A stretch of 52,293 nt of DNA, taken from assembly GCF_004010195.1 (NCBI RefSeq), contig NC_057719.1:21102979-21155271 (forward strand). Direction: 5' to 3'. Shown piece after piece: positions 975 to 50,148 of this stretch (position 1 is the first letter of the stretch; each line of letters starts with the position of its first letter). Source of the DNA: Chiloscyllium plagiosum (Eukaryota). Position numbers and translations under genes: made by a program. A model generated the notes under the pieces. That model was not told the origin of the DNA. It ran no database searches and saw only the letters and a list, made by a program, of their open reading frames with translations.

Positions 975-1066
975 AACAAAACTTGCTGGAAACATTCAGC
1001 AGGTCTGGCAGCATCTGTGGAAAGCTATCAGAGTTAACATTTCAGTTCAAGTGACCCTTCTTCAGA
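975..1066 (-). mobile_element. Family C Penelope-derived short element with decayed hammerhead core
   Basis: Minus strand ctgaagaagggtcacttgaactgaaatgttaactctg...ccacagatgctgccagacctgctgaatgtttccagcaag; homologous to 9527, 22597 and 49013. Confidence 0.7.
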
Positions 1067-2871
1067 TCAGACTTTCATCTATTTGAAAGATCAGCTATGA
1101 GCTGTACGTCAATTCAGCTCCCAGAACCATCAGTTCAGCCAATCTAGAAACAAAAGTATTTACCCTATTCCAATTCACATCAGAACCAAACACCTAGAAA
1201 TTTAGCCACAAAAGGCCTCACAATGTGCTGTGAATCTTGTATTTTACAAGAACCTAATTTTAATTATTTAGCATTGAAACCATTTTAGAAACCATAGTGA
1301 GAATCCCGAAGAACTTAAAATCGGGGTCTGAGACCACTGTGCACTGTAAAATGATTCTATTGTTATCTGTATCCAACATATATACATGTGGATGTGATCA
1401 AAATATGTGTGACATTATCCTTAATTTGGAATAAATCTGTGAAAATAAATAATGATGAACAAACTCATAAAAGTTTGCTACTGAGTAATTGGAATAGGTG
1501 CTCCCAGTCAGAAAAGACAGGTTGCTCTATATTCTAGTGTACTGATCACAGTAAGAGAACATTCACATTCCGTGTGCTGTGGTGTTACCACCACAATTGT
1601 GTCCAGCACACTCCAACCACTGTGGATGATTCCATTGATAAATCAAAAGTTGAAAATTAGGAAAAATTTGTAAACTGCAAATCTAAGAATGGCAGTAATT
1701 TTGCAATTTGGTCTTAAATCTTTAAAGCAACAAAAGATGCAGAGCAGCTTGCAAAGGTTTATAAAGAGTGGCAGCAGATTGTTGGGACAAATAAGAGAAT
1801 ATAAACCAGTTCACCTCAGGCTTCTCAGTCCATTTGTGATATTAGCTGGAGTCAAGAGGTTCTGTCAGATAGTAGCTTTGTCCCATTTCCATTGGTTTCA
1901 TTAATTCATTAGCACAAGTGATCTTTGATTCTCTGAGTGTTTTACTTTTCAAATGGGTTTTCAATGACAAAAAAATGTCTTTTTTAAAATGAAAAAAAAT
2001 TAGATTATAATACCCTTATTTGTAATAGTCTCAATTTCATCAGAAGTAGAATAACAAAACGTCGAAACATATTAATTTCAGCAGAACTCGAAATTTTTCT
2101 CCAGCTGGTGTAGAATATCTTTTTTTTTACCCAGAAAAGAAAATAATTGCCCTAAAGAACATCTCTTTATATCAATTCAAATCTAAGTATGCATTTTAGC
2201 ATACTGTGAGCTATTTCAGAGTAGACAGCTATGATAATCAACTGTGAAAAAACTTTAGAATGCTTTTTGTTTAGATTCACTTCAGCCTGCTGGTGGACTG
2301 ATGTTATTGCTACAAAACTGAAGGCACAATGGAGAATGTGAAGGTCACTTGCTCGGTTTGGCTCACTTAATTAGCCTGATCAAGGGTTTGACTTACTATG
2401 AAATTCCTTTTCAGTGGTACCACTAGCATGGGGTCAGGTTTAATTTGAACCATATTTCTCATGCATGCAAATCATTTCTTGACTTGCGTCTTAGACTGGC
2501 AACAGTGTCTTTCGAGTGTTAAACACATCTGTTAACACACCAAGAGTAATAGACTCAACCTTTGTGTTGGACTGGTATGATTTCCTGATGGGGATAAACC
2601 AAATTTTGAAATATCAGAGGTTCTTCACATGTTTCAGTGATTTTCATGATTTCCTTGCAAGCTCAGGGTAGGATGAAACAAATTTTATTGAATGTTGAAT
2701 ATTGAATATAATTCTTTCTTCCCCTTTGACCCTTCCCCCCTTCACTCCTGAGAGGTCAACTGTCCTCTAGGTATCATCAGCTCTTTAATATATACACATG
2801 TAAATATTCTTCATGTATAAATGGAAATCATCCATTGGCATCAAGATCATAAAGATCGATCATAAGTTTAT

Positions 2872-3160
2872 ATGTTCATAAAATACAGGAGCAGAATTCG
2901 GCCCATCAAGTCCACTCCGCCATTCGATCATGGCTGAGATGCTTCACACCCCCAATTTCCTGCCTTCTGTCTATAACCATTCAACACATTACCAATTAAA
3001 AATCTTTCAAACTCCTCCTTAAATTTATTCACTGTCCCAGCTTCCACCGCACTTTGGGTAGCAAACTCCACAGATTCGCAACCCTTTGAGAGAAGTAGCT
3101 TCTCTTCAGCTCTGTTGTAAATTTGCTACCCCTTATCTTAACACTGTGACCTCTATCCTT
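2872..3160 (-). mobile_element. CR1-clade LINE 3' end fragment
   Basis: Homologous to the fragment at 43470-43800; typical CR1 ORF2 C-terminus and 3' UTR. Confidence 0.7.
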
Positions 3161-3207
3161 ATAAGGAATATGGTAACAATGCGTTAATATTACTGAACCA
3201 ACTATGC

Positions 3208-3633
3208 AGATGCCTGGTATGGAGAGAAGGTCTTATGATGAAAGGTTCAGGGATTTGAGGTTGAGAAGGAGGTTGAGAGGTGACTTAATTGAGACATATA
3301 AGATAATCAGAGGGTTAGCTCAGTTGGACAGTGAGAGCCTTTTTCCTAGGATTGTGATGGCGAGCACAAGGGGGCATAGCTTCAAATTGAGGGGTGATAG
3401 ATATAGGACAAATGTCAAAGATAGTTTCTTTACCCACAGTAGTAGGGGCGTGGAACGTACTGCTGCAACAGTTGTAGACTTGCCAATTTTATGGGTATTT
3501 AAATGGTCATTGGATAGGCAGATGGACGAGATGGAATAGTGTAGGTTAGATTGGTTTCAGATTGGTTTCACAGGGTGGTGCAACATCAAGGGCCAAAGGG
3601 CCTGTAGTGCATTGTAATGTTCTGCGTTCTATG
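3208..3633 (+). mobile_element. CR1/HER1 LINE 3' end
   Basis: Translates to CR1 ORF2 C-terminus (RRRLRGDLIETYKIIRG...TRGHSFKL); ends in a gttctatgt-type tail. Confidence 0.9.
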
Positions 3634-3710
3634 TAGATGTTTGATCAAAAGACATTCATTCATATTGCATTATGGTTGATCAATAATTTAAACTTACCAA
3701 ATTAAATCAT

Positions 3711-3836
3711 AGGAGAAAGTGAGGACTGTAGATGCTGGAGATCAGAGCTGAAAATGTGTTGCTGGAAAAGCGCAGCAGGTCAGGCAGCATCCAAGGTGCA
3801 GGAGAATCGACGTTTCGGGCATGAGCTCTTCTTCAA
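3711..3836 (-). mobile_element. Family A Penelope-type short element with hammerhead motif (C3 mutated)
   Basis: Minus strand ttgaagaagagctcatgcccgaaacgtcgattctcc...cactttctcc; near-identical to 7319-7447 and 26134-26255. Confidence 0.85.
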
Positions 3837-4126
3837 ATGAAATCATATCTGGACTTGGACATATCACAGAAGGAGGCCTGCAACATTCTGACCGAGTGCC
3901 AATTTCCCACTTTCCCCAATACCCTTGCACATTATTTTTATCTAAATAATCATCAAATGCTTTCTTTAATATGTCAATCAAACAATATAGAAATATGAAC
4001 TGGAGAACCATTATACAATGTCATCATGCCAATATGTGACTCCAATTCCGCTGAAATGGCTGAGCAAGTCATTCAGTTGCCCACAAGAAGGTGACTTATC
4101 AACACTTCCTCAAAAATAACAAAATT

Positions 4127-4440
4127 CATACAGAATCCTTACAGTGTGGGAACAGGCCCTTCAGGTCCACACTGACCCTCTGAAAAGTGCCCCACCCCTC
4201 TACATTTATCCCTGACTAATACACCTAATGTACACATCCCTGAACACAATGGGCAATTTAGTATGGCTAATTCACCTAACCTGCGAAGTCTTGGATTGTG
4301 GGAGGAAACTGAAGGACTCAGTGGAGACCCACACAGACACAGGGAGAACGTGCAAACTCCACACAGACAGCTGCCCAAGGCTGGAATTGAACCTGGGTCC
4401 CTAGCACTGTGAGGCAGCAGTGCTAGCCACTGTGCCACCC
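4127..4440 (-). mobile_element. HE1-like SINE
   Basis: tRNA-like head, central tgtgtggagtttgcacgttctccc domain, CR1-derived tail gggcctgttcccacactgta. Confidence 0.9.
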
Positions 4441-4670
4441 CAAATGTTGGAGTTGCCAATAACATCATGAATGAATAAGGAAAAAAATTCTCCAAGTGTC
4501 ATTATTCTACTGATTAGGTCTGGCTAGCTTTGTTTCCATCTCATTAGCCAAGAACATCGTAGCCAGTTGGCACAATGGTTGAAGTCAGCACAGAGATGAG
4601 ATAGAATGGTGAGGCCATTCAGTTTAATATGGCACATGCCAATGCATAAAGCCTGAATATAAAACAAAAG

Positions 4671-4983
4671 GGTGGCTCAGTGGTTAGCACCGCTGTTTCA
4701 CAATATCAGGGACCTGGGTTTGATTCCACCCTTGGGTGATTGCCTGTGTGGAGTTTGCACATTTTCCCTGTGCCTGTGTGAGTTCCCATTGAAAGATGTA
4801 CAGGTTAGCTGGATTGGCCATGTTAAATTGTTCATGGTCTCCAGGGATGTGCAGGCTAGGTGGGATAGCCATGGGATATGTAGGGTTGCAGCATTAGCTG
4901 GTGGGATGATCTTTGGAGGGCCAGTGTGGACTCAATGGGACTAATTACTTGCTTCCACACTGTAGGGATTTTAACGACTCTAT
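4671..4983 (+). mobile_element. HE1-like SINE
   Basis: ggtggctcagtggttagcac head, V-type central domain, cttccacactgtagggatt tail. Confidence 0.88.
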
Positions 4984-5871: not shown

Positions 5872-6186
5872 TTAGATTAGATTCCCTACAGTGTGGACAC
5901 AGACCCTTTGGCCCAACCATCCACACTGACCCTCCGAAGAGTAATCCACCCAGACCCATTTCCCTCTGACTGATGCACCTAACACTACAGGCAATTTAGC
6001 AGGGCCAATTCACCTAACCTGCACATCTTTGGACTGTGGGAGGAAACTGGAGCACCCAGAAGAAACCCACGCAGACACGGGGAGAATGTGCAAACTCCTC
6101 ACAGACAGTTGCCTGAGGCTGGAATCGAACCTAGGACCCTGGTGCTGTGAGGCAGCAGTGCTCACCACTGAGCCACCAGGCCACCC
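5872..6186 (-). mobile_element. HE1-like SINE, full length
   Basis: (ttaga)n tail at left, tRNA-like head at right. Confidence 0.92.
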
Positions 6187-6354
6187 CTAAAATTCATTTG
6201 AGCTAGGTAGGAGCTCAAATGAGCCCAGCCACACTAAAAATAATGGCAGACTGAGTGGCTGTACATAAGGGGCTGTACATTTCACACCCATTTAACATGG
6301 GGTAAAATGAGAGGTGGGAGGGTAGGCAGCGAGAAGGCTGCCCATTTTATTTAA

Positions 6355-6538
6355 GATTGGGGGAGCCGGTATTGGACTGGGGTGTACAAAGTTAAAAATG
6401 ACACAACACCATGTTATAGTCCAACAGGTTTACTTAACACTGCTCCTTCACCTGGACAAGCTGTTGAAGGTGCAGCGCTCTGAAAACTAATGCTTCCAAA
6501 TAAACCTGTTGGACTATAACCTGGTATTGTGTCATTTT
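6355..6538. mobile_element. Family B Penelope-type element, inverted pair
   Basis: Arms ~6395-6450 and ~6461-6538 are reverse complements; decayed core ctgttgaaggtgcagcgctctgaaaacta; direct repeat cattttatttaa at 6343-6354 and 6533-6544. Confidence 0.8.
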
Positions 6539-6711
6539 ATTTAATGCCTTCCCTTGTCTTCAAAATGCCAGCAGAAGGGATTGTAAAGTGCAGTCATTTC
6601 AGAGGCTGATCACCAATATTTTCAAATCAAGCTGTTCAGAGATATTATTATTACTCATCTCTGGAGCAGGTGAGACCTGTTCCAATGGACTGTAAAATGA
6701 GCAAATGTAAA

Positions 6712-6795
6712 ATCAGAAGTCACATGACTCCAAGTTATTGCCCAGCAGGTTTATTTAAAATCACAGCTGATGGAGCGCTGCTCCTTCATCAGATG
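6712..6795 (-). mobile_element. Family B element fragment
   Basis: Minus strand ctgatgaaggagcagcgctcc followed by a decayed aaataaacctg-type segment. Confidence 0.65.
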
Positions 6796-7318: not shown

Positions 7319-7447
7319 GGAGAAAGTGAGGTCTGCAGATGCTGGAGATCAGAGATGGAAATGTGTTGCTGGAAAAGCGCAGCAGGTCAGGCAGCATCTA
7401 GGGAACAGGAGAATCAACGTTTCGGGCATTAGCCCTTCTTCAGGAAT
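7319..7447 (-). mobile_element. Family A element with 13-bp target-site duplication
   Basis: atacatttccaac at 7306-7318 and 7446-7458 brackets the copy. Confidence 0.9.
7414..7445 (-). ncRNA. Minimal type I hammerhead ribozyme motif, core intact
   Basis: RNA UC-CUGAAGA-A-GGGC-UAAU-GCCC-GAAAC-GUU-GA: conserved core, 4-bp stem II, ACGU palindrome in place of stem III, 2-bp stem I. Activity untested. Confidence 0.7.
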
Positions 7448-8811: not shown

Positions 8812-8940
8812 AAAACCAAGGCCTTTGCATGCTGGAGACCTGAAACTAAATCAGAAATTTCTGGTGAAACCCAACAAGTCTGACTGCATCTTTGTGAGAA
8901 AGTAGAGAAAACATTTTGAGTTCAGTGACTCTTCACCAGA
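8812..8940 (-). mobile_element. Family C element, decayed
   Basis: Minus strand tctggtgaagagtcactgaactcaaaatgtt...cagacttgttgggtttcaccagaaatttctg...ccagcatgcaaag. Confidence 0.6.
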
Positions 8941-9526
8941 GTTGCAGAATGATGTAGTTATGCATTTGTGCAGAAAATGATGTGAGTCTTTATGGTTTTA
9001 TAAACTTGTATCCAATAATTAAAGCAAAATTTACCTTTTTATTAGAAATCTGATTTGCCTGTTAATTCATTGCTAATTTATTTGGATTTTCATTTATGTG
9101 AATGTAAAAGCTACAAAAAGACTTATCTTGTTAGCAGTATCTTCATTTGAGGTCACTCAGTACATTTAGTTATTTTGGTTTACCGTGATTCCCACAAATG
9201 TCAGAGCAATCTCTCGATGCAGGGTGATTCGATCCTGACTGAGAGGTTCTCTTCATGATCCTTAGAGCCTTTCTATGGGAGAAGAGTCCATTGGAGAGGA
9301 CATTTCAGGGACCAGTGTGGAGCACTGAAAGCAATTATCTTCTCTATTCGGCTGTCTTTGCCTTTCAAGGTCTGGGAAACACAGCTGACCAGGACTAAAT
9401 CTGAAAAAAAAATATAAGACTGCTAACTTCAATAAGATACTCAAACTGCTTCTGAGAGTTTGTTGACTGGCCAGCTCTTATCCCACCTTGGTTAATTCTG
9501 TAAGTGGGTGAGTGTGACATGTTACT

Positions 9527-9655
9527 TCTGAAGAAGAGTCGCTGCACTCAAAACATTAAGTCTGCTTTCTCTCTGCACATGCTGCCAGACTCGCTGAGTT
9601 TCTTCAGCAATTTCCATTTTTGCTTCAGATTTTCAGCAACTGCAGCTTTTTGTCC
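9527..9655 (+). mobile_element. Family C element, decayed core
   Basis: tctgaagaagagtcgctgcactcaaaacattaag...gctgccagactcgctgagtttcttcagcaatttc. Confidence 0.7.
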
Positions 9656-10030: not shown

Positions 10031-10681
10031 AGTATGTGTGTAATGAACAGTAATATCAGTAAACATAGAACAGAGACAATGTAAGTGAGTTTATGATATT
10101 TTATGCATGAACAGAAGCCACCAATCTATGGTACACAGTACAGGATGTAAATAGCATCATGATGTGTCCATCAATGGTCTGCAGTTGAGTAATGCATACT
10201 CCCAAGACATGAGCAGGAAATGGGGTGTTCAACATATTAGCTTTCTCGTAATCCTTAGTCAAACAGTTTTCCAGAATGTGCTTTTGTATTGTAAAAGTCA
10301 TGATCATGAAATACAAAGTGACTTACCAATATCTTCAGATAGCTACGTTAAATCTATGTCATAACCCTCTTAGCATCAACTTATCATCACCAACAGCTCA
10401 CATGTTTGGGAGATAGATCCACACAGTTCTTCCATCCCATACTGACACACACCAAACCACATGTTGCAAAACACAGTGTGGCGAAGAAGGGAGAATATTG
10501 CACAAGAGAATGATCAATGAATATGCCAACAGCTATCCTAACCTGAAACAGAGCAATGCAAATACGTCTGAGATTTTTGCATGAACAGCATGGGTTGATG
10601 GAAAGATACTACATCATTGTGTTTGATATAGATCGCATGACATTGCAAATAAGCAATGTTCAAGCCTTCTAAAGAAATAGA

Positions 10682-10776
10682 GGGTTGGAGATTTTGAGCT
10701 ATAGGGAGAGGTTGTATAGGCTTGGGCTGTTTTCCCTGGAGCGTCAGAGGCTGAGGGGTGACTTTATAGAGGTTTA
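10682..10776 (+). mobile_element. CR1/HER1 3' fragment, left half of a copy split by the 10777-13095 insertion
   Basis: Encodes LSYRERLYRLGLFSLERQRLRGDFIEV; colinear continuation at 13122. Confidence 0.8.
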
Positions 10777-13095
10777 GAACATAGAACATTACAGCACAGT
10801 ATGGACTCTTCGGCCCTCGATGTTGCGCCGACCTGTCATACCAATCTGAAGCCCATCTAACCAACACTATTCCATGTACATCCATATGCTTGTCCAATGA
10901 TGACTTAAATGTATTTAAAGTTGGCGAATCTACTACCGTTGCAGGCAAAGCATTCCATACCCTTACTACTCTCTGAGTAAAGAAACTACCTCGGACATCT
11001 GTCCTATATCTATCACCCCTCAGTTTGAAGCTATGCCCCTTTGTGCTCACCGTCAGCAGACTTGGAAAAAGGTTCTCCCTTGTCCACCCTATCTAACCCT
11101 CTGATCTTAATAGAGACATATCTTATATGTCTCTATTAAGTCATCTATCAACCTTCTTCTCTCTAACAAAAACAGCCTCAAGTCCCTCAGTCTTTCCTTG
11201 TAAGACCATCCCTCCATAACAGGCAACATCCTAGTAAATCTCCTCTGCACCCTTTCCAAAGATTCTACATCCTTCTTATAAAGCGGTGACCAGAACTGTA
11301 CACAATACACCAAGTGCGGCCGCACCAGAGTTTTGTGCAGCTGCAGCGTAACCTCATGGTTCTGGAACTCAATCCCTCTATTAATAAAAGCTAAAACACT
11401 GTATGCCTTCTCAACAACCCTGTCAACCTGGGTGGCAACTTTCAAGGATCTGTGTACATGGACACTGAGATCTCTCTGCTCCTCTACACTACCAAGGACC
11501 TTATCATTAGCCCAGTACTTTGCATTCCAGTTACTCCAACCAAAGTGAATCACCTCACATTTGTCCGCATTAAACTCCATTTGCCACCTCTCAGCCCAGC
11601 TCTGCAGCTTATTTATGTCCCTGTGTAACCTACAACATCCTTCGTCACTATCCACAACTCCACCAACCTTAGTGTCGTCTGCAAATTTACTAACCTACCC
11701 TTCTACGCCCTCATCCAGGTCGTTTATAAAAATGACAAACAGCAGTTGACCCAACGCCGACCCTTGCAGTACACCACTTGTAACTGGACTCCAGGATGAA
11801 CATTTCCCATCAACCACCACCCTCTGTCCTCTTTCAGCAAGCCAATTACTGATCCAAACTGATATATCTCCCACAATCCCATTCCCCCGTATTTTGTACT
11901 GTGGGGAACCTTATCAAATGCCTTGCTGAAATCCATATACACCACATCAATCGGTTTACTTTCATCTACCAGTTTGATCACCTTCTCAAAGAACTCAATA
12001 AGGTTTGTGACACACGGCCTACCTTTCACAAAACCGTGCTGACTATCCCTAATCAAATTATTCTTTACTAGATTATTTTAAATCCTATCTCTTATAGCCT
12101 TTTCCAACACTTTACCAACAACTGAAGTAAGGCTCATTGGTCTATAATTACCAGAATTGTCTCTACTCCCCTTCTTGAACAGGGAACCACATTTGCTATC
12201 CTCCAGCCTTCTGGCAATATTCCTGTAGATAATGACAATTTAAAGATCAATACCAAAGGCTCTGCAATCTCCTCCCTGGCTTCCCAGAGGATCCTAGGAT
12301 AAATCCCATCTGGCCCCGGGGACTTATCTATTTTCACACTCTGCAGGATTTCTAATACCTCTTCCTTGTGAGCCTCAATCTTATTGGAAACAAAATTCAA
12401 TAAAATTTAGACGAGACCACCAAAACTGGAAACAAGACAATTTATTATGAACTTGCAAGTAAGGGCTTCAAACTTAGGTTAATGTACAGTTATACCCTTT
12501 GAGCTGAGTGAGGTCATCTCTCCAGACTCCTAATTACCCAATCTCTCTTACTGTGCCAGACCACTGCCCAGTTGTGCTCCACCCTTATTACTTCCCCCTT
12601 CCCCAGGTTGGCAACTTTCCTTTCTGTAAGTGCTGACACATACATTTATTTTGTCAACAGTACATCTAAATCTGGTTTAACATTTTGTATCAATTCTGCT
12701 GGTACATTCCATCCTCGGACATTTCATTAACTTGTATCATTTTGTATAGCTCAAGCATTTCGGCTATCTCAGCTTTTTGCTGAAAGCATAATTTTACAAA
12801 AGTAACTTTTTGTTATAGTAATTACACACCAAAGTTAGTATTTAATTAACCACAATTATACACTGAAAAGTCCCTAAATACCTGCAGGGTTAATAGTTCT
12901 CTTGCTGTACCCCTTTTCTGTATGCTTTTTCTATATCTGCAAAAACAACACTTTACCCCATTTCTAACAATCCTACCTAGTCTAGTAGCCTGTATCTCAG
13001 TATTCTCCTTGATAACATTGTTGTTTTCTAGAGTGAATACTGTTGAAAAATATTCATTTAGTGCTTCCCCTATCTCCTCTGACTCCACACACAAC
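10777..13095 (-). mobile_element. CR1 LINE, 5'-truncated and frameshifted ORF2 (RT), containing a solo LTR
   Basis: ORF fragments [57 protein letters not shown]; (tagaaca)n tail at left. Confidence 0.93.
12382..12969 (-). mobile_element. Putative solo LTR (588 bp) inserted in CR1
   Basis: CR1 is contiguous across it (cctcaatc|ctacctagtc); ends tattggaaa...tttctaaca are imperfect inverted termini (TG..CA with one change); 4-bp flanks atct/atcc; minus-strand AATAAA near 12441. Confidence 0.6.
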
Positions 13096-13121: not shown

Positions 13122-13454
13122 CATGGGCATGGATGGGATAAATAGACAAAGTTGTTTCCCTGGGGTGGGGGAGTCTGGAAATGGAGGGCATAGGTTTAGG
13201 GTGAGAGGGGCAAAATATAAAAGGGACCTAAGGGGCACCTTTTTCACACAGAGGGTGGTACATGTATGGAATGAGCTGCCAGAGGAAGTGACCGAGGCTG
13301 GTACAACTGCAACATTTAAAAGGCATCTAGATAGGTATATGCATAGGAAGGGTTTGGAGGGATATGGGCCGGAAGGGTTTGGAGGGATATGCTGGCAGGT
13401 GGGACTAAATCAACATGGGGTCTGTTTCTGTGTTGTATATTTCTATGACTCTAT
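13122..13454 (+). mobile_element. CR1/HER1 3' end, right half of the split copy
   Basis: GMDGINRQSCFPGVGES..GHRFRVRG..FFTQRVVHVWNELP; tctatgactctat tail; small tandem duplication near 13346-13391. Confidence 0.9.
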
Positions 13455-15056
13455 AAGTAGATGACATATTCAAGCTGCACATTTTCAAGCATCCATCACA
13501 CCTGATGAACACTTGGATATTGAAGGCATCACACCAGACAACAACTACACATTCAGTCATGACAACATGTAGCACAGCACAAAACACCACCAAATTTATA
13601 ATATCTGGATAAAGACTCAATCTGGTTATTTCCTACATTAGCTGAATTTTCTTATACACACACATTCTTGAACATGCAATCGAGAAAGCGTTTCCATTCT
13701 TTGAAAGGAAAGGGGGATGAGATTGCATTTTACCATAGATTCCAGGTACTGTCCCTTTAAATCAGCTACATGACATCACACCTCGGATTATTACGGCATA
13801 AAGGTACCCATTTCACCTTAGCAACAGTCTCTTTCTGTAATAGTGTCAGTTCAGTCAGTTGGTTGTGTGTGTATTGTAAGTAACATGAGTAAGCACAGAA
13901 ACCAGACTGCATGTGTAACTTCGTGATATTATTTTTACTAGTTGGATTTGGAAATAAACCTCAAGACATTTGACTGAACAGAACCTGACGATCCATGGTT
14001 TATGTTATGTGGGTTAACATAGTAAATTACAAAGAGCATCAGCTACCTCTCACTAGATAATTGTTTCTCTCTCCTTAGGGCCTGTAAACAAAGATTCCCA
14101 TGTAGTTTGTCTTGTGCCAGGCTCTGCTGTTGTTATCACTGCAACAACTTGTGTGCAATAATTGCTCCCTCTGTGTTCTTAATAGCTCCTGTTTGTATTC
14201 TCCCTGGAACCAGCCTTGGTGGCAATTTATTTAAGTGGTCTCTCACCATTTTCCTCCCTAGGATATTATCAAAGTGCCACATGTTAGATTGAGCGTCCTG
14301 GAATTAAATTAGCTTCCTTTGATCTAATTCAATAATTTAATCCTTTTATTCACAGGTTAAGTGAGATACAAAGCACAGAAGCCAACCATTTGGTTCAACC
14401 TTATCTCTGTTGGTATTGAGTTTTGACATAGTCTTCCACTTCCTTTTGACAGAAAATTCTAGTTACTAATCACTCCCTGAAAATAAAAACAAAACTTTTC
14501 TTTATTAGCTTTATTACTAACAATTATACATTTATGGCCCCTTTTGCCCAGATGTGTAAACTTTATACCTACCACGTCCAACCCATTCAGAATGTTAAAG
14601 ACATCTGTCAGATCACCTTCTCACTTCTACAGAAAATGTCCCACATGTTCAATCCTTCTTGATATCTATAATCTAATGTCATGATCTAACTTGGCCCTCA
14701 TACAAGTTTAACATAGCCTCATTACTATTGAATATTAAAATCCTGGAAATAAATCTTAATATATTGCTAAAAATGACACAACACCAGGTTATAGTTCGAC
14801 AGGTTTATTTGAAAGTACTGGCTTTCGGAATGTTGCTCCTTCATCAGGTAACTGTGGAGGAGGATCAAAAGATACAGAATTTATTGCAAACGATCACAGT
14901 GTCATGCATGCAACTAATGTGACATACTGAACAAACTAGCTTGCTGTTAAGTCTGTCATCTTTTAGAAGGGGTTGCAGGTTTTAGTTCATTAATATGCAA
15001 ATTCCAGGACTTCTTTCAAATCACATTCCTGAGATAATGTAAGGTTTTATTAAAAA

Positions 15057-35177: not shown

Positions 35178-35254
35178 TATTATCCCAAGTTGCGACGACC
35201 CAACCAAACCAACACCCAAAATGAAGACACTAGCAACTACCACTTGCTGTTTAA

Positions 35255-35272: not shown

Positions 35273-35275
35273 ATC

Positions 35276-36580: not shown

Positions 36581-36761
36581 AGATGGAGGCATTCAGTGCT
36601 GGGAGAACCACAGACTAAATCTGAATGTAGTTTTGCATGCTTGCCAGTTTATAGTCAATGAATGTATATGTGTGTTTTCGGGTACTAACCACTACTTTTT
36701 AGTGTTTTGAAAAATGAAGCCATCTTAGGATATTGTGGCTCTTTTTTTTTAACAGGAGAGG

Positions 36762-37398: not shown

Positions 37399-37545
37399 GA
37401 TTGGGGGCTATTTGCGGGATTTGTTTGTAGTTCCAAATTGGGATTTGGGATTTGAATTGTCTGGAATCGGAGACAGCAAGTAGTAGGTGTTGGCGTCTTT
37501 CTTCCAGATGTTTATTTGGTTGGTTTAAACAGAGATGGGATAGCC

Positions 37546-38352
37546 ATGGCTCTTTCAGTTACCAAATGTTTTCTGGGGGTGGAGGAAGTGACTTTGGGGG
37601 TTTTACAAAAGGTGATTAAGGCCAAGCTGTGGGAATTAACAAACAAGCTGGAGTTGGAGCTACCTGCTCACGTGAGGAAAGATGAGATGATTACAGCAAT
37701 AGCTCGGCATTTAAATTTACTGGAAACAACATCAGGATCTGTCAAGATGGCAAAAATTCAATAGCAAATGAAGCAGCTTGAGTTCTAGGCGAGAGATGAG
37801 GAAAGGGCAGCAGAAATGAAACAGTCTGAATTACGATTAAAAGCAGAAGAGAAAGAAAAAGAGAGAGAGTTTGAACTTCAGAAAATGACACTTAGAAAGG
37901 AAAGTCAGCTTAAAAGGATGGAAATGATGGCTGAAGGTGGGCTTAGTGAGGAAGTAATGCAAACTCATGTGGAAGAGCAGAGGGTTAAAATGGCAAGGTT
38001 AGTAGCTGAAGTGGCTGATGATTATGAGTTGGTTCATAAGACATGGTTTGGCTTTCAGAATCAATTTCAGTACATGAGGGATAGAAATTGGGGCAAAGAA
38101 AAATCCTCACATGGAAAGGGAAAGGTAGATCTCAGTTAAGATCAAAAGGATAACTTACCACAGGTTAAAAAGGAATCCCTTGAAGGGGACAAAGATGGTA
38201 AAAAGCTCCGATGTTTTCATTGTAATAAAATAGGCCTCATAAAATCACAGTGTTGGTGGGCTAGGAAAAAGCCAGATGTTGGAAAACAGGACAAGTCTGG
38301 GAGTTTTGCTGGAATGGTGTAGAAAGCACAGTGGAAGCTACAAAGCTGCATC
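37546..38352 (+). pseudogene. gag: Second Gmr1-like gag, decayed and 3'-truncated
   Basis: MALSVTKCFLGV...; EEQRVKMARLVAEVADDY; CFHCNKIGLIKSQC at ~38212; paralogous to 34200-35177. Confidence 0.88.
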
Positions 38353-38501
38353 TGTTTGTTTAAAACTTGGCAGTCAGATCAGCTCTGGGAATTCACTCTG
38401 GAAATATCCACTGTACACTTACCTAAAACAAAGAGCAAAGATACGGCCTGGACTACCTGCTTAAAAATGTTTTGAGGGGGCTGGACCTGGTCCATAAAAC
38501 A
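38353..38501 (+). repeat. 3' portion of a further LTR
   Basis: Matches 37257-37398 (aaaacttggcagtc...cttaaaaatgttttgagggg...ccataa(aa)ca). Confidence 0.8.
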
Positions 38502-40617: not shown

Positions 40618-40839
40618 GGGCAAAAGTGAGGACTGTAGATGCTGGAAACCCAGAGTTTAGATTAGAGTGGTGCTGGAAAAGCACAGCAGGTCAGGCAGCA
40701 TCCCAGGAGCAGGAAAATCGACGTTTCGGGCAAAAGCCCTTCATCAGGAATAGTCTGTTCCTGATGAAGGGCTTTTGCCCGAAACATTGATTTTCCTGCT
40801 CCGCGGATGCTGCTTGACCTGCTGTGCTTTTCCAGCACC
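40618..40839. mobile_element. Family A inverted pair
   Basis: Arms ~40669-40750 and 40758-40839 around tagtctg; cttacac on both flanks. Confidence 0.9.
40718..40749 (-). ncRNA. Minimal type I hammerhead ribozyme motif, core intact
   Basis: RNA UC-CUGAUGA-A-GGGC-UUUU-GCCC-GAAAC-GUC-GA with a canonical GUC triplet. Activity untested. Confidence 0.75.
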
Positions 40840-41525
40840 CCTTACACATACACAGCCTGCCTTTGGTGTAATATTTTGTATGAGAATTGCTTTGAGAAGT
40901 ATCTGAGAGAGCTGATGAATTAGACTTTTTTTATGTTGGCATTGAGAACACTTTGTAAAGTGGACCTTTCTTCCAATTTCCAAAACACATTTAAGCAAGC
41001 AAAATATCTCATTTCGACAGTGTCAGCTCCCAATAGAATACTGGGCAGAATGTCAGACTGAAAGAAGTGAATCATGACATGTCTCAGAGACAATTTATGT
41101 GAAAACTTCAGACTGAATTGAGTTGTTTTTCATTTTATTTCTGGATCCATTTCATCCTTTTAAGGTTTCTTTATTTGCAGGCTCTGCCTTTTGCCGAACC
41201 TTGCATGGGATTTCATCTAGCATGACGGGACACAAATCATTTCATAACTGATTCAAATACATGTCTCGATTAGTTGAAGCTTACAATAATTTTGACTCAA
41301 TGCAATTTATTTCTTGTAGAATCGTTACAGGATATAAGATAAAATGACCATCATCAATTTGGTCATAGTTATTGGATCAGAAAGGTAATGGTCATAATTA
41401 GACCAAACTACCAAGGCTTATAGGCTCAAACTCAACAAATACAAACCTGACCATTTGCATTAATTACTCCTCAAAATTTGGAATTCAATCCTGCATAATT
41501 TTTATTGATACAGAAAGGTGCCAAT

Positions 41526-41709
41526 GTGAGGTTTACAAAGTTATGAGGGGCATGGACAGGGTAAATAGGCAAAGTCTTTTCCCTGGGGTCAGAGAGTCCA
41601 GAACTAGAGGGCATAGGTTTAGGGTGAGAGAGGAAAGATATAAAAGAGACCTAAGGGGCACCTTTTTCACACAGAGGGTGGTACGGGCTCTACGACTCTA
41701 TGATTCTAT
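41526..41709 (+). mobile_element. CR1/HER1 3' fragment with internal deletion
   Basis: MRGMDRVNRQSLFPGVRESRTRGHRFRVR joined directly to the ctctatgattctat tail. Confidence 0.85.
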
Positions 41710-41904: not shown

Positions 41905-42905
41905 CACAGAATCATAGATTTGTTACAGCATAGAAGGAGGCCAATCAGCCTCCTTGTGAAGGGCTTATGCCCAAAATGTTGACTCTCCTGCTCTTCGGAT
42001 GCTGCCTGACTAGCCATGCGTTTCTAGCACCACATTCTTCGATGCCAATCAGCCCATCATGACTGCACTGGCTCTTCAAACCATCATAATTTCTTAATAC
42101 CAATTTTCAGCCCTGTATCTTCACTAATCGTCACTAAATAATCACCCAATGCACTCATGACTGCTTCAACTGAACCTGCATCCATCAAATTTCCAGGCAG
42201 TGCATTAGTTATTCCTTGTGTGAATAAGTTTTTTCTTCACATTATCTTTGCTTCTTTTGCACATCGTTTGACGTCTATGCCATCTCATTCTTGTTCATTT
42301 AATAAGCAGGAAAAGTTACTCCCTATTTGCTCTATCCAGCCCACTGAACCTCTATCAAATCACCTGAGACTGTTCAAGGAGAACAGTCCCAATTTCTTTA
42401 ATCTGTCCTCATAACTGAAGTTTCTCATTCCTGGAACTATTCTTGTCAGTTATTTCTGCATTCTCTCTAATACATTCACGTCTTCCAAATAATGTGCACT
42501 TATAAGTGTGCGCAATAATCCAGTTGAGGTTGAACGAATGCCTTGTAAATGTTCAACATCATCTCCTTGCCCTATTAATAAAATTGAGGACACTGTATGC
42601 TTTATTAACTGCTGTCTCCACTTATCCTACCACATTCAACGATCTGGGCACACATACCCTAAGATTCTCCCCTCTGCAAGCACTTTAGGATTGTACCCCA
42701 AATTATATTGTCTCGCAACATCCTTCCTATCAAAGTGAACATCTCACACTTCTCTGCTTTCAACCTCACCTGCCATTTACTCACCCATTCCACCATCTTG
42801 TTAATATCCTTTCAGAATTCTACACTCTCTTGCACACAGTTTACAATTCTTTGAAATTTTTTGTCATCTGCAAACTTTGAAATCGTCCCCTGCACACTGA
42901 GATTG
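41905..42905 (-). mobile_element. Old CR1 LINE 3' region
   Basis: CR1-type tail at left; minus-strand SKFADDKK motif near 42860-42880. Confidence 0.7.
41951..42043 (+). mobile_element. Family A element lacking the 3' tail, 11-bp TSD
   Basis: gccaatcagcc at 41940-41950 and 42044-42054; decayed core cttgtgaagggcttatgcccaaaatgttga. Confidence 0.8.
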
Positions 42906-43800: not shown

Positions 43801-44621
43801 CTTAGTCATAGAGTCATAGACATGTACAGCACAGAAACAGCATACATTCCTATACTGCCCCCCAGGGAAACTCCACCACAAACCTTTCTCCAGCCTAAAA
43901 TCTATCCTTTGATTATGATTCCAAACTCACTTTTTACCATGTGCTACTAATTCTATTCCAAACAATTGTTTCCAGAAGCTTCCCCACAACCAAAGTTACA
44001 CTGACTGGTTCGTAATTACTGGAATAATCCTTACCACCTTTCTTTAACAAGGCCAGAACATTTGCAATTCTCCTGTCTTCTGGCGCCTCACAAGAATCTA
44101 GGGAAGACCGTAAGATTATGGCCAATGATCCTGTGATTTCTACCCTCACTTCATTCTAAATCCTTGGACGGGATCTAGTCCTTCATCAATTTTAGTCTGT
44201 AAAATACTTCGTTGTTATTTATTTGGAATCCTCCTCGTGTTAAAGTTTCCTCCTTTGACACCATGGCCTAGGCAACATCCTCCACTTTTGTAAAGTAAGA
44301 AGTAAAGTCTGCATTTAACACCTCACCCATGTCCCATGCCTCCATGTGTTACTTGCCTTTTCAGCCACTTATTAGTCCCACTAATCCATTAATCTTCTTT
44401 TACTATTTACGTGCGACAAAACACTTGTGATTCCCCTTTATGTTAGCTGCTAGTCTTCTCTCATAATTTCTCTTTCTTTCTTTTAGTTGCTGCCCTTTCA
44501 ATCTCCAGTGTCCTTCTTGACTCTCAACTGCATTTTTAGCCTCACACCCAACATAACCACACTCTTCAATTTCTACCTCCTTTGTCACACAGGGAACTCT
44601 GGCTGTGTTTGTTCTAATATG

Positions 44622-44665
44622 AGGAGAAAGTGAGGTCTGCAGATGCTGGAGATCAGAGCTGGAAT
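44622..44665 (-). mobile_element. Family A 3'-tail-only insertion inside a 70-bp direct duplication
   Basis: aggagaaagtgaggtctgcagatgctggagatcagagctg; 44552-44621 is identical to 44666-44735. Confidence 0.9.
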
Positions 44666-44998
44666 CATAACCACACTCTTCAATTTCTACCTCCTTTGTC
44701 ACACAGGGAACTCTGGCTGTGTTTGTTCTAATATGCCCATTTGAGAAATTCTACCTCGATTGTACCATTACCATCTTCTCTTTGAAGATAGCCCATTGTT
44801 CAGTGACTGTTTTTCCCACCAAACTCTTGTTCCACTCAATCCTGCCCAGTTCTGTTCTTAACTCACTGGAGTCAGATCTCTGTTATTTGATTTTTCTGAC
44901 TCTGGACTGTTGCATGTCATTCTCCACCACTATTCTGAATCTTATGATACAATGAACATGATCTTCTATCTGTTCTTCCATTGTTTTTTGATCCAACC

Positions 44999-45084
44999 TT
45001 GACAGCATGAGAAGTCATTCAGATGAGCAAGACTGGCATGTTTATCAGGTTGTCTGACTGAGTAGGGACCGTGACATGAACTCT
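44999..45084. repeat. 86-bp perfect inverted copy of 46406-46491
   Basis: Base-by-base reverse complement; no mismatch seen. Confidence 0.95.
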
Positions 45085-45829
45085 TATTTTTAAGTGTCAA
45101 GTCCGGCAATGCATCCATCTTTTCTTCTAAGACTGGACACATACTGATGAGGAAATTCTCCTGAACTCACTCTAAGAACATTTGCTCCTCATACCTCTTT
45201 ACAGTACCACTGTCACAGTCAATATTTGGATAATTGAGATCCCCTATTATAACTATATTATAATGTTGGCATTTCTCTATAATTTTCATGCCATTTGTTC
45301 CTCTATGCCTTTTCCATTGATTGGTGGACTATCCATCAGTTGATGGTCTATCTTGAATTTACTCCTTTTTGGGACATGAAAGCGTAACTTAGATGATTCC
45401 CAATGTCTAAAGCAGCCTATTGAGACATGTTTAAATTTGAAATAAAACAGAACCCTGTATGTAGAAACATTAGAAACAGGTAAAGACATTTCAAACACCT
45501 GAGTGTGCTCTGCTATTCAATTAGGTCATGTCTGAACGGCAGCCAAACTGAATTTACCTTTGTGTGCTGACTTTTGATATCCTTACCTAAAACAAATCCA
45601 TCTCAGTCTTTAAAGCTCCATTGAATCAATTTCTCCAGTAGTCTGAGGAAGAGAGCTTTAGATTCCCACTATCCTTTGTGTGAGAAACAGCACACAGTAA
45701 ACGGAAGTTAACATTATATTTTGATTATCTGTCAAGTTAAGATTGCAATACAGATCATGAGACCTGAAACTTCCTACAATGAAGACTAGTTGAATTCTTT
45801 CAGAAATCAAGAGTATTTGTCAAAAACAT

Positions 45830-46135: not shown

Positions 46136-47404
46136 GTGGTTTACAACAAGATAACCTTCAATCCCTGCTGTTAACCTTTTCTGCCTGTAACTATTTTTTT
46201 TCTCTTGTTGCTTGGGAAAGGAATCTCTGTGCCACCTGACAGGTAATACAATGGCAGATTCAGGATGCTACTAATGAAATTGGGAGCACATTTTGTCTCT
46301 GGGTTCCATCCTGATACTTCCATTTCTCTGTCAATCAATTCCAATTTTTTTCAATGTAGATGTCTGGGTTGTACCGTCAACTACTGGAGTTGAGATCATT
46401 TCATCAGAGTTCATGTCACGGTCCCTACTCAGTCAGACAACCTGATAAACATGCCAGTCTTGCTCATCTGAATGACTTCTCATGCTGTCAAACTCTGTGT
46501 CCTTAATTTCAAGTTTATGATGTGTTGGGAGCAGGGAAGGTGAGAGAGATTCACGCAGAAGAAACCCAAGACTACATATGTACCTGTCAGGGGTTTTTGA
46601 AGTCAGCCATCTCAGAAAGTGCATATTACAAATGACAAGACAAGATGTTGCATAACTTAGAGGGGGCCTTGAAGGTAGCAGTGTTTCTGTGCACCTGATA
46701 CCCTTGTTTTTATAGTTGGCAGAGATCACAAACTTTGGAAGTGCTTCTCTGTTTCCTTCATATTGTAGCATCAGTTACATTTCAAGAGTTATTCACAGCT
46801 TGAGCTCATGAAGGACACTATCTAAAGCAAAGTTCTTTCTTTACTTTTTATCACGATATACACATCGGCAGGATGTTTATAATGCTCTTGTGAAGTGCCT
46901 CTAAATATTTATTATATTGAAGATGCTATATAAATGCAAATTGTTGTTGTTATTTCTCATTGACTTAACACATAACTTATCTATTTATTTAGATATATCT
47001 CTACTAATCGATTGCTGTACCTACATAAATACCAATTTTTCAAGTGTTATTATAAACATTTGTAGGAAATCATTATTCTCTGAACTTCCCAATCTTGTTT
47101 TTACCATGCTGCAAATATTCCTCATTACACCTGTGTCCTTCTGAAATTATAACAAAACATTTCTGACAGCAACGTTTTTTTCCCCAGGGGATTAAAACTG
47201 TGAAAATTCTTTATTGCTACCAGGGGCTTTGCTTCCTGCTATAATCTTTTAAAGTTTCAATCTCAAACATATGTCAGTCAAACATCTGTAGATTTATCCA
47301 ATCTTCATACTTTCTGCTTTCAACATTTCTGCCGTTAAGGACAATGCCGTACAATTTAACTTCTCAACAACAATCACCCTCGTATGTATGTCAAATAAGA
47401 AGAA

Positions 47405-47780: not shown

Positions 47781-48604
47781 ATGTTTGGGACAATTTATTA
47801 GAGATTGTGAAGGAGAGAAACAAGGCTTGTTTTACTTCAATGACAGTTTTATATCATTCCTCATTTACGCAAAATTGCAACAAGGTTATACCTAGTGAAT
47901 GTAACATGGAACGATGTTACTGCATGATGCACAGAACTCTTGTCTTTGGGGATGGGGAAGTTTGAGCAATACTATCTGGAATTTGCAATTACTTTCAAAG
48001 TAAGACTATCCATCTCTATTTAACTCATTTCCTAAAAAGCAAAGCTGACTAGATCAAACGTACCAGCTTAATGCCTCAGTGTGTTTTTATTCATATTGCA
48101 ATATTAGTCATTGAGCAAAAAATGCAATGAATTGTCATCAGCGAATTCTTGAAAAAAATTAAATGGGATGCCATCCCAATTAAAGTTCCAAAGGCTTTGT
48201 TTCAAGCAAACCTCAATAATCCTTTCCCTAGCCAATAACAAAGCTCAATTGTTACTGCAATTTAGGTATTGAGTGTGTAGCACTGGTCATCCTCAAAAGA
48301 ACAGCTCCTCAACAAGTCTTGCAAGTGTTCATTATAATTTGTCTATAATTTGAAATGTGAAACCCTCCCAACCTCCTCACCCGCAAAAAAATGATCAAAG
48401 TTGGTGTCTTGATGAAGATCTGAATATAAGGTTGTCTTAAGCGATCTCTGATTGGATTTGTAATTCATTTAATTGGTTCAGTGGGAAATGTCTGATTTGT
48501 TGTACTGGAATGAAAATGCAGAACACACTTTTAAACTGTGCTTGAATTTGCAGACATGAATGCAGAGACCTTCCCTGTAAACTGTACCCATCTGCACAAT
48601 GGAC

Positions 48605-48772
48605 AGAATTACTTCAATACACCACCTTGTTGCCTGGTCAGTATCTCTGTCTCAGGCTTGTGCAGTGTTCCAGCACAGCTCAGCAAAGCTGGAAGAACAG
48701 CACCTCATTTTCTGCTTTGGAATTCTACAGCCTTCTGGACTCAATACTGGGTTCAACAATTTTAGACCTTGA
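48605..48772 (+). pseudogene. C-terminus of a Penelope-like element ORF (GIY-YIG endonuclease), frameshifted
   Basis: YFNTPPCCLVSISVSGL, then after frameshifts KLEEQHLIFCFGILQPSGLNTGFNNFRP* (48686-48772), matching the PLE HF...E..LI..L.T..P.GLN pattern. Confidence 0.8.
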
Positions 48773-49108
48773 GGCATCTTCTCCATGTCCTTACCCAAAC
48801 CCCTACGTACCATGGTCTGCTATTACACTTAACCCATTGTTAGCCATGAATTGCTAATCATTCTTCCAGGCTGATCATCATCCACTCCTTTATCTGTTCA
48901 ACTGTTTTTCAGTCTCTTTGGGCTCTATCCCCACCCATCATTAACTTCTTATACCATCCCTCCCCCCCACTCCCTATTTTCTACATACCAAACAACATTT
49001 TCCTGGTTACCATCAGTTCTGAGGAAGGATCACTGGACCTGAAACAATCACTGTCCACAGATTCTGCTAGACCCGCTGAGATTTTCCAACAATTTCTGTT
49101 TTTGTTTG
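48605..49108 (+). mobile_element. 5'-truncated Penelope-like retrotransposon ending in the family C hammerhead module
   Basis: ORF end, pyrimidine-rich 3' region, then cagttctgaggaaggatcactggacctgaaac (49013-49045) and the family C 3' segment. Confidence 0.8.
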
Positions 49109-49174
49109 GGACAAAATTACTGGTTGACACAATCTCCAGAAGAAGAGAAATTGGAATCTTAATAAACTTCTGGA

Positions 49175-49842
49175 TGTTGGAGGTGTCGTTGACAGTATAG
49201 AGGGCTGTTGTAGTCTGCAGCGGGACATTGACAGGATGCAGAGATGGGCTGAGAGGTGGCAGATGGAGTTCAACCTGGATAAATGGAGGTGATGCATTTT
49301 GGAAGGTCGAATTTGAAAGCGGAGTACAGGATTAAGGATAGCATTCTTGGCAGTGTGGAGGAACAGAGGGATCTTGGGGTGCAGGTACATAGATCCCGTA
49401 AAATGGCCACCCAAGTGGACAGGGTTGCTAAGAAAGCATATGATGTTTTGGCTTTCGTTAACAGGGGGATTGAGTTTAAGAGTCGTGAGATCTTGTTGCA
49501 GCTCTATAAAACTTTGGTTAGACCGCACTTGGATAGATAGAGTCGATAGCCAGAGATTATTTCCCAGGGCAGAAATGACTAACATGAGGGGTCATAGTTT
49601 TAAGCTGGTTGGAGGAAAGTATAGAGGGGATGTCAGAGGCGGGTTCTTTACACAGAGAGTTGTGAGAGCATGGAATGCGTTGCCAGCAGCAGTTGTGGAG
49701 GCAGGGTCATTGGGGACATTTAAGAGACTGCTGGACATGCATATGGTCACAGAAATGTGAGGGTGCATACATGAGGATCCGTGGTCGGCACAACATCATG
49801 GGTTGAATGGCCTGTTCTGTGCTGTACTGTTCTATGTTCTAT
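49175..49842 (+). mobile_element. CR1 LINE 3' region with internal deletion
   Basis: EVMHFGRSNLKAEY..LQLYKTLVRPHL joined to DRVDSQRLFPR..RGHSFKL; (gttctat)n tail. Confidence 0.9.
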
Positions 49843-50026
49843 AAGAAGGGATTTCTGAATATGTGAGGATCTTGCTTTCATTTTGTAAAAGGCTTTTGTA
49901 AAATCAAGATATAATTTTTAAAATTTATCATCGTACTCTGCAGATACTTTTATAAAGCATTTTTACATGTAGTAAATGGATTATTTTTGGTTCATAAAGT
50001 GAACAGACATGTTATTAGTCATGTCA

Positions 50027-50148
50027 AGATTAGAGTAGTACTGACAAAGCACAGCAGGTAAGGCAGCATCCGAGGAGCAGGAAAATTGATGTTTCGGGCA
50101 AAAGTCCTTCATCAGGAATCTCCAGCATCTGCAGTACCCACTTTCGCC
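50027..50148. mobile_element. Family A element: tail-less minus arm joined to a plus-strand 3' tail
   Basis: 50027-50119 is the minus body; 50119-50148 tctccagcatctgcagtacccactttcgcc is the tail in the opposite orientation. Confidence 0.8.

Follow-up and report, generated by a model that had tools for sequence, protein, structure and literature searches.

Dispersed hammerhead repeats in Chiloscyllium plagiosum are terminal pieces of three families of Penelope-like elements

Hammerhead-bearing insertions in the window and genome-wide

The analysed window, a stretch of 52,293 nucleotides on contig NC_057719.1 of Chiloscyllium plagiosum, contains 19 insertions comprising 26 arms (17 of family A, 5 of family B, and 4 of family C) as well as one further degenerate family C copy at 8830-8940 (Table 1). 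This amounts to 19-20 insertions or about one per 2.7 kb, in line with the preliminary description of this DNA, which had given about 18 at roughly one per 3 kb. Head-to-head pairing is frequent among these copies and some of them reach remnants of an open reading frame (ORF), two features absent from that description.

Table 1. Coordinates of hammerhead-related insertions in the window (strand "." denotes composite features)
Feature	Position	Strand	Remarks
Family C arm	969-1066	-	Degenerate hammerhead; begins at ribozyme edge
Family A (A1) arm with tail	3711-3835	-	14 bp target duplication, 1 mismatch
Family B head-to-head pair	6351-6544	.	Tailed arm 6351-6432 (-), short arm 6461-6544 (+)
Family B arm, degenerate	6702-6792	-	
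Family A1 arm	7319-7447	-	Predicted +1 to tail end; intact core 7416-7443 (GUU); 13 bp target duplication
Family C arm, very degenerate	8830-8940	-	
Family C arm, degenerate	9526-9638	+	
Large family B head-to-head insertion	14768-16362	.	Arms of ~600 nt of PLE 3' region; left, short end, arm broken by a SINE at ~15057-15370; right, tailed end, with TATA-like box 16202, predicted +1 16232, hammerhead 16240-16268, poly(A) hexamer 16278
Family C arm with tail	22597-22720	+	
Family A1 arm	25166-25290	-	Stem II deleted
Family A2 head-to-head pair	25713-25978	.	Internal duplication; core 25774-25801 (-) fits descriptor, stem I broken
Young A1 insertion	26105-26255	.	29 nt inverted stub and tailed arm; 16 bp target duplication, 1 mismatch
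Family A1 arm	31367-31481	+	Begins within stem II; host site is an LTR-retrotransposon remnant
Family A2 head-to-head pair	35489-35828	.	~60 nt of upstream promoter region in arms; one long and one short end; 15 bp target duplication
Family A2 head-to-head pair	40619-40842	.	Both arms begin at ribozyme edge; intact core 40720-40747 (-); predicted single-hairpin fold, -169 kcal/mol
Family A arm, degenerate	41951-42040	+	
Family A tail-only fragment	44621-44664	-	Without hammerhead
Long family C copy	48689-49108	+	C-terminal remnant of PLE endonuclease ORF ~48689-48765, 3' UTR/promoter region, degenerate hammerhead at 49019
Family A2 arm (-)	50024-50148	.	First base G at predicted +1; joined to inverted tail fragment (+)

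All three families share the core of a minimal type I hammerhead, whose stems and palindrome covary between families as had been proposed. The covariation was tallied in register with the structure, using promoter-bearing natural copies as input; a MAFFT cross-family alignment left the stems out of register, so that its pair count is uninformative. Stem I is formed by UC/GA in A, CAC/GUG or UAC/GUA in B, and AGUU/AACU in C; stem II by GGGC/GCCC, GGAGC/GCUCC, and GGGUC/GACCC, respectively; and the palindrome replacing helix III is ACGU in A and C, and AGCU in B. The repeats carry the traits of hammerheads from Penelope-like elements (PLEs), namely CUGANGA, an extra base, a G-C-closed stem II, GAAA, the palindrome, a NUH site, and a short stem I. 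The core and stems of the family A consensus proposed earlier hold, but its position 7 is not U alone (A in 17 copies, U in 9), and the proposed stem I of B, uac/gua, does occur but is a minority form (third pair CG in 31, UG in 6, and UA in 6 of 47). The sequence downstream of the ribozyme is common to A and C (family D5).

A structure descriptor for minimal hammerheads had three strict matches in the window versus none in each of 40 order-3 Markov controls. Two of these are the cores previously placed at 7414-7445 and 40718-40749, both of which are indeed intact and on the minus strand; the former has the triplet GUU, a CpG transition at C17 that still conforms to NUH, and the latter GUC. 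The third combines its broken stem I with a G-U pair in stem II. Rfam misses these cores: a search of the window returned no hammerhead at E<=5, and the hairpins gave miRNA-like matches, all below the gathering score. Genome-wide, exact intact cores numbered 92,148 for A, 18,117 for B, and 278 for C, with none for the controls, and by extrapolation the genome holds about 0.9 million insertions. The very large ribozyme reservoir suspected earlier is therefore large in number, but that its members are working ribozymes found no support.

Relationship to Penelope-like elements

The PLE origin assumed in the preliminary description is directly visible, as longer copies of all three families extend upstream into PLE ORFs. 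A near-full-length family B copy (L132) contains an RVT_1 domain, shares 58% identity in its ORF with an intact relative of 881 aa, and spans the protein P0002 end to end, with breaks. Fragments of families A and C match another relative, P0019, which carries RVT_1 together with GIY-YIG (PF01541). A PF01541 search gave no match to the genome's own copies, and an uninterrupted ORF was recovered for neither A (checked in 20 loci) nor C. Within the window, the translated ORF remnant of the long family C copy corresponds to the ORF end of two other C copies (L108 and L125), themselves matching a GIY-YIG-bearing PLE protein; the remnant itself had no tblastn or Pfam match. The single ORF with reverse transcriptase and C-terminal GIY-YIG endonuclease that characterizes endonuclease-bearing (EN+) PLEs is hence recognizable, for A and C from fragments and with the domain seen in the relative. 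Furthermore, the CX2-5CxxC linker between reverse transcriptase and endonuclease, a Neptune trait common to Nematis, is present in B (L132) and A (L252), and degenerate in C (L125).

The layout of the copies is also that of EN+ PLEs. Direct pseudo-LTRs (pLTRs) surround the ORF, with hammerheads 3.37 kb apart in L132 of family B and 3.88 kb apart in L242 of family A, where the intervening sequence reads N; for family C, only the 3' pLTR/hammerhead copy was found. In addition, insertions show an inverted truncated copy, a 30-40 bp tail at one end, and a target duplication. The repeats are thus the hammerhead-bearing pLTR/5'UTR ends of three autonomous endonuclease-bearing PLE families. Their earlier portrayal as SINE-sized modules was apt with regard to size, but they are ends of autonomous PLEs that lack the upstream promoter: an upstream extension of at least 30 nt was present in 50 of 315 arms, whereas 265 stop short of that. 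No independent non-coding master with its own promoter, as expected of a SINE, is apparent, as the short unit starts downstream of the TATA region, and long and short copies belong to common subfamilies.

Ends of the copies and a model of their origin

The 5' edge of short copies is sharp and lies 4-8 nt ahead of the ribozyme, about 30 nt past a TATA-like box. When references were trimmed of flanking repeats, the 5' ends of 188 sampled A arms fell once in -29 to -11, 68 times in -10 to +2, and 9 times around the cut site; among B arms, 1 of 68 lay in -29 to -11. Among long copies, 37 of 48 from family B and 3 of 4 from family C carry TATAAA about 30 nt upstream of the edge, and in 23 of 27 from family A a fixed TTATCT motif occupies the TATA position. 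Among the B copies listed, 77 of 100 had G as the non-native base preceding the edge, compared with 12 of 29 for adjacent offsets (p=5e-4). Against junction controls, the listed A1 (54/100, p=0.12), A2 (61/100, p=0.22), and C copies (43/100, p=0.74) showed no such difference, the G excess exceeding genomic background in all four sets and junction controls only in B; internal truncations carried G in 24 of 70 cases. An extra G has been described as the mark of cap copying in L1 (PMC11702581), and here, where it is clear in B only, it suggests that uncut RNA was copied as far as its cap. Since stem I begins right at the edge in A and C, cap and structure are inseparable in these two families; in B, the G excess sits 5 nt beyond stem I. 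The sole usable RNA run displayed neither a pile-up of read ends nor a transcript start. Copying from cleaved RNA was considered as well and rejected, as the 5' ends have no peak at the cut site, with 1 of the 188 A arms ending exactly there.

The 3' ends of short copies fall at one of two fixed positions, the longer of which stops at the ORF ATG in family B (L132), while the ATG of family A lies about 38 nt further on. Head-to-head pairs combined a long and a short end in 73 of 84 cases and two long ends in one; target duplications flanked 38 of the 84 (30 of them 14-16 bp long) versus 3 of 300 controls; of 30 single young arms, only 4 had one. In tandems, an edge-starting unit follows a piece of the ORF start, with G common at the joint; short tandems with hammerheads 250-500 nt apart exist, and their unit length varies from locus to locus. 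Family B RNA is polyadenylated 29-32 nt past the cut site (551 reads), upstream of both fixed 3' ends and following a poly(A) hexamer retained in 41 of 47 long copies; such a hexamer is present in only a minority of A copies and in no C or D copy. The polyadenylated reads may derive from host transcripts ending within a copy. Family A reads of one RNA run go in both directions, 94% continuing into unlike flanks, and had no poly(A) among the loose ends listed.

We consider it likely that the short copies are stubs, which arose as the element's enzyme, working from the two cut ends in the target, reverse-transcribed no more than the initial 90-130 nt of its capped, uncut RNA. In each family, which its longer copies tie to a PLE ORF, the TATA-like box and initiator of the repeat would direct Pol II to begin transcription 4-8 nt ahead of the hammerhead. 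As known in vitro for another PLE, the protein would nick both strands, here about 15 bp apart, and initiate reverse transcription near the ORF start, at two fixed internal positions separated by about 35 nt. Each cDNA would then reach the cap, sometimes gaining a G, or be trimmed, and both would be joined head to head; long copies could result from a jump from the cap end to the 3' repeat of the RNA or, alternatively, from a circle made by hammerhead cleavage and ligation. Internal initiation at both target nicks would leave strong-stop-like 5'UTR copies, the ribozyme being constrained in active elements and mostly dead in inserted copies. As the copies likely stem from the capped start of uncut RNA, they probably represent a clue to replication rather than a store of working ribozymes.

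Ordinary 5' truncation, by which reverse transcription from the 3' end stalls near the ribozyme and palindromes form by fold-back self-priming, possibly on antisense RNA, would explain the many 5' ends inside the ribozyme; truncation and inverted pLTRs are standard in PLEs (PMC8557442), and self-priming on an antisense template has already been proposed (PMC3846280). We nevertheless regard it as unlikely, since ends just upstream of the edge are nearly nil in A and B alike, a stall would be expected at stem entry and not past it, the G excess of B lies beyond stem I, and the arms of a pair differ systematically in their 3' ends. An independent non-autonomous element of SINE or retrozyme kind, i.e. 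a short master transcribed alone, cut by hammerhead dimers, perhaps circularised, and mobilised by the PLE protein in trans, would be consistent with the fixed length of about 130 nt, the preponderance of arms stopping less than 30 nt upstream, and the short tandems, and animal retrozymes indeed stem from pLTRs (bioRxiv 10.64898/2026.07.22.740005). Yet short copies are devoid of the TATA region, show up to 96-99% identity with long ones, and share their loop variants; their edges lie away from the cut site, and the tandem units have no common length, all of which renders such an origin quite unlikely.

A functional reservoir, in which dispersed copies would form intermolecular dimers, cleave the host transcripts that contain them, and be retained for this activity, likewise appears highly improbable, despite more than 110,000 exact cores, the transcription of copies (1,746 and 1,708 reads in one run), and a pooled tally with core mismatches of 0.5-2.7% versus 4.7-7.5% downstream. 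This tally mixes subfamilies and is biased towards good cores; when arms within one insertion were compared with each other, 15 of 347 core and stem sites differed versus 118 of 1949 downstream (p=0.26, at low power). Post-insertion constraint on the cores is thus undetectable, and ribozyme activity is a prediction from sequence. Moreover, monomers were uncleaved and dimers scarcely cleaved in one study (PMC4209133), 1 of 9 Xenopus dimers was cleaved in another (bioRxiv 10.64898/2026.07.22.740005), and PAc required protein (PMC11167929). Read depth shows no step at the cut site, albeit in a poly(A) library in which cleavage ends are invisible. A same-strand neighbour within 1 kb accompanied 10 of 101 near-intact cores, and inverted pairs are predicted to fold as long hairpins; because the copies decay neutrally and most are either solitary or part of a hairpin, they are unlikely to constitute a working reservoir.

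Taking the stub model one step further, we tentatively raise the possibility that the PLE pseudo-LTR is a true U3-R-U5 terminal repeat, with the cap just before the hammerhead and poly(A) just after the second hammerhead. R would measure about 70 nt in family B, and as both initiation sites would lie only at the 5' end, every insertion would begin as strong-stop cDNA from both nicks. Long copies would then require strand transfer to the 3' R, or else the end hammerheads would pair, shed cap and poly(A), and ligate into a circle. If so, the million stubs would be products of a failed first step. Whether or not this holds, the copy ends record a replication cycle, confronting a 5'-proximal start of reverse transcription with the existence of long copies and tandems, and bearing on the role of the hammerhead; the positions of the predicted start, cut, poly(A), and two initiation sites make this cycle directly testable.

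Comparison with known systems

Dimer cleavage of PLE hammerheads was reportedly described by Lunse et al. in 2017. The ribozyme motif and the solitary copies are of an already known kind, as genomic minimal hammerheads that derive from truncated PLEs, whether solitary or on opposite strands, have been published (Cervera and De la Pena 2014, PMC4209133). The minimal type I hammerheads in metazoan PLE pLTRs described there equally lack helix III, have a palindrome at 15.2-16.2, an extra base before stem II, and G10.1-C11.1, and form several families per genome, mostly solitary with some opposite-strand pairs. In contrast, stem II is only 4-5 bp here, and the sum of at least 110,543 exact cores is more than tenfold the published vertebrate counts of minimal hammerheads, such as ~4,000 in coelacanth and ~9,000 in Xenopus, although search methods differ. 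The results and discussion of that paper name no shark, and in the main texts of the open-access literature we found no shark-specific or strong-stop description.

EN+ PLEs of the Neptune/Nematis type (PMC8557442, PMC3846280) share the inverted truncated pLTR, the one-ended tail of 30-40 bp, the target duplication, TATA and Inr in the pLTR, and the CX2-5CxxC linker before a C-terminal endonuclease. However, most insertions here are a promoterless piece downstream of the predicted start, and duplications measure 14-16 bp compared to 8-10 bp in the rotifer examples. Non-LTR retrozymes (PMC7229834, bioRxiv 10.64898/2026.07.22.740005), reported from one chondrichthyan genome and with up to 120,000 copies in axolotl, have the same type I hammerhead and pLTR origin, but are organized as tandem arrays, whereas here same-strand neighbours within 1 kb accompany the 10 of 101 sampled cores mentioned above, and the window catalogue contains no such pair.

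A parallel to our model is the green anole Poseidon element PAc (Frangieh et al. 2024, PMC11167929), in which two internal initiation sites likewise bound the tail. The PAc protein cleaves both strands and extends them from two such sites, mainly with unprocessed RNA as template. The main text of that study gives neither a cap edge nor a poly(A) position for PAc. Its ORF begins inside the hammerhead, placing the initiation sites 111-118 nt into the ORF, whereas in C. plagiosum they are located in the 5'UTR.

Hammerhead repeats, their origin and their abundance

The preliminary description counted some 18 dispersed insertions in the window; self-comparison and mapping gave 19 with 26 arms (an arm being one repeat copy, an insertion a single arm or a head-to-head pair), plus one degenerate family C copy. 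A strict hammerhead descriptor found three cores in the window against none in 40 controls, and an Rfam search of the window returned no hammerhead match. Both cores described as intact are so, and the covariation noted between families holds, as stem I, stem II and palindrome differ by family with pairing kept. Family D, a fourth one that is absent from the window and contributes 20 arms to a 974 kb sample, has a hammerhead with a stem II of 6-7 bp and an ACGU palindrome, and TATAAA upstream; at locus L013 a nearby endonuclease fragment looks Poseidon-like. The window's non-PLE repeats are similar to shark SINE (HE1, for the tRNA-type element) and CR1 families, and two family A insertions sit among its Gypsy-like fragments.

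Coordinates of the features (in the window unless a locus is named)
Feature	Location	Remarks
Intact hammerhead cores	7416-7443; 40720-40747	triplet of 7416-7443, GUU
Family D hammerhead	L046:522-555; also L013, L036, L139, L199, L210	stem I covaries UCA/UGA, CCA/UGG
Family C endonuclease remnant	48689-48765	seen by translation only
Near-identical local duplications adjoining or surrounding PLE arms	24322-24527 + 25279-25485; 44552-44735; 44999-45087 + 46403-46491	
Compound family A insertion	L234 (G000:C34, near 38.588 Mb)	tandem units on both strands
Broken Gypsy-like LTR-retrotransposon fragments	29224-38500	both orientations; RT, RNase H, integrase-like pieces
tRNA-type SINE, 8 copies	1-60, 4125-4440, 4670-4970, 5872-6188, 15057-15370, 18480-18793, 20554-20903, 29794-30111	~310 nt
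CR1-type LINE 3' fragments	3211-3631, 10681-12215, 13125-13372, 19878-20542, 41528-41685, 49176-49841, 51117-52290	

The repeats are PLE ends, as had been proposed, since longer copies of A, B and C are linked to PLE ORF or endonuclease sequence. Family B locus L132 carries a 5' hammerhead remnant, an ORF beginning at the end of the tail (the extra stretch of the long 3' end) and, 3.37 kb further, a 3' hammerhead; the ORF is broken, matches RVT_1 and spans an intact 881 aa relative (main blocks 46-62%), and of the named records one from Chiloscyllium punctatum comes closest to a family B protein fragment (93% across 20% of the query). Family A has endonuclease-region fragments upstream of the repeat, an ORF start ~38 nt past the tail and, at locus L242, direct repeats spaced 3.88 kb with N between them, while family C has upstream endonuclease fragments at loci L108 (E 5e-6) and L125 (E 1e-5). 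By motif, the CX2-5CxxC linker in A and B is like that of Neptune/Nematis elements (PMC8557442). The Pfam GIY-YIG profile matches a relative and none of this genome's own PLE copies. Pieces of the family B ORF also occur in two shark host protein models, P0056 (PPP1R12A-like) and P0115 (follistatin-related 5), possibly through exonisation or else annotation error.

Hammerhead-bearing repeats are very abundant in this genome. Exact-pattern cores in the 3.56 Gb assembly number 92,148 for A, 18,117 for B and, under a stricter pattern, 278 for C, with 0 for reversed-pattern controls. A sample drawn at fixed round coordinates, 100 stretches each 10 kb long (974,325 non-N bases), held 335 arms making up 251 insertions, family D included. 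Provided that unplaced contigs are similar, this scales genome-wide to ~1.2 million arms in 0.8-1.0 million insertions; published minimal hammerheads number ~4,000 in coelacanth and ~9,000 in Xenopus (PMC4209133). Of the very large ribozyme reservoir proposed earlier, the copy count stands, but the evidence on activity lends no support to a store of working ribozymes. Arms of one insertion (51 pairs) differ at 15/347 non-CpG core and stem sites versus 118/1949 downstream (p=0.26, at low power); a pooled mismatch tally gave the opposite direction, but is confounded. Few near-intact cores lie close to another on the same strand (10 of 101 within 1 kb), inverted pairs are predicted to fold as long hairpins, and monomers are described as not cleaving and dimers as cleaving weakly or rarely (PMC4209133; bioRxiv 10.64898/2026.07.22.740005). 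Judged from sequence, the genomic copies would be mostly inert.

The 5' edge and family B RNA

Copies have a sharp 5' edge before the ribozyme, the predicted transcript start (+1). Among 188 sampled A arms, 34 extend at least 30 nt upstream, 1 ends at -29..-11 and 68 at -10..+2, followed by 33 at +3..+14, 10 at +15..+25, 9 at +26..+31, near the hammerhead cut (+28), and 33 beyond +31; family B shows the same upstream gap (1/68 arms). In long copies TATAAA lies ~30 nt upstream of the edge (B 37/48, C 3/4), replaced in A by a fixed TTATCT motif (23/27). Where the base before the edge is non-native, it is G in 54/100 A1, 77/100 B and 43/100 C copies among those listed, and in 61/100 listed A2 copies, scored as G vs A only (all counted by eye). 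These values exceed genomic background in all four, and junction controls in B only (p=5e-4; A1 0.12, A2 0.22, C 0.74), the control loci being the heads of the A and B core listings plus the unbiased sample, with the A2-type entries and 8 B arms from widely separated pairs removed. There is therefore good support for a capped start at the edge in B, and no more than a suggestion of one in the other families; in L1, an additional G at the junctions of full-length copies is interpreted as the cap (PMC11702581).

In one poly(A) single-cell run from the same species, family B reads show a strand bias of about ten to one and a poly(A) site 29 nt (239 reads) and 32 nt (312 reads) past the cut, where the genome is not A-rich. 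AATAAA/ATTAAA stands at +38..+40 in 41/47 long B copies and is absent from 22/27 A copies and all C and D copies. The B poly(A) site precedes both fixed 3' ends, and a polyadenylated RNA of the element would therefore hold the initiation sites close to its 5' end and nowhere else; the reads may also derive from host transcripts. Family A reads run in both directions, and mapped A and B reads showed no end pile-up in this poly(A) library, which is blind to starts and cleavage.

Two 3' ends, proposed template jumps and PLE replication

Arm 3' ends fall at ~+80..+92 (short) or +110..+127 (long), and 73 of 84 head-to-head pairs are long-short, 10 short-short (some eroded or clipped by the boundary of the sampled stretch) and 1 long-long. 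Target duplications flank 38/84 pairs, 30 of them 14-16 bp long (control 3/300), and 4/30 young single arms (control 0/100). The local duplications around PLE arms are either insertion-linked rearrangements or assembly artefacts.

At A loci with an ORF start, 136-415 nt of ORF is often succeeded by a unit that begins at the edge; the breakpoint varies from locus to locus, and in several cases the joint carries a G. This arrangement fits cDNA reaching the cap and then jumping. Such jumping would also give rise to hammerheads in short tandems, which are retrozymes in raw form. Each unit of the compound insertion L234 is an ORF-start piece fused to the 3' region, in a retrozyme-like tandem.

We propose that Pol II transcription would begin at the edge, that cDNA would copy the RNA through to the cap, that reverse transcription would be primed from both target nicks, and that long copies may arise by strand transfer or via a circle. 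An open-access literature search found no shark-specific or strong-stop account of such elements, and the repeats offer a useful, testable clue to PLE replication. TATA plus Inr is already noted in a rotifer pLTR (the PLE pseudo-LTR; PMC3846280), and the D. virilis Penelope has a TATA-less internal promoter (PMC2377424), so that the upstream-TATA layout is not universal. A tail restricted to one insertion end is published for PLEs (PMC8557442, PMC3846280), and in PAc, the green anole Poseidon element, the protein uses unprocessed RNA as template and extends both strands, starting at two internal sites (PMC11167929).
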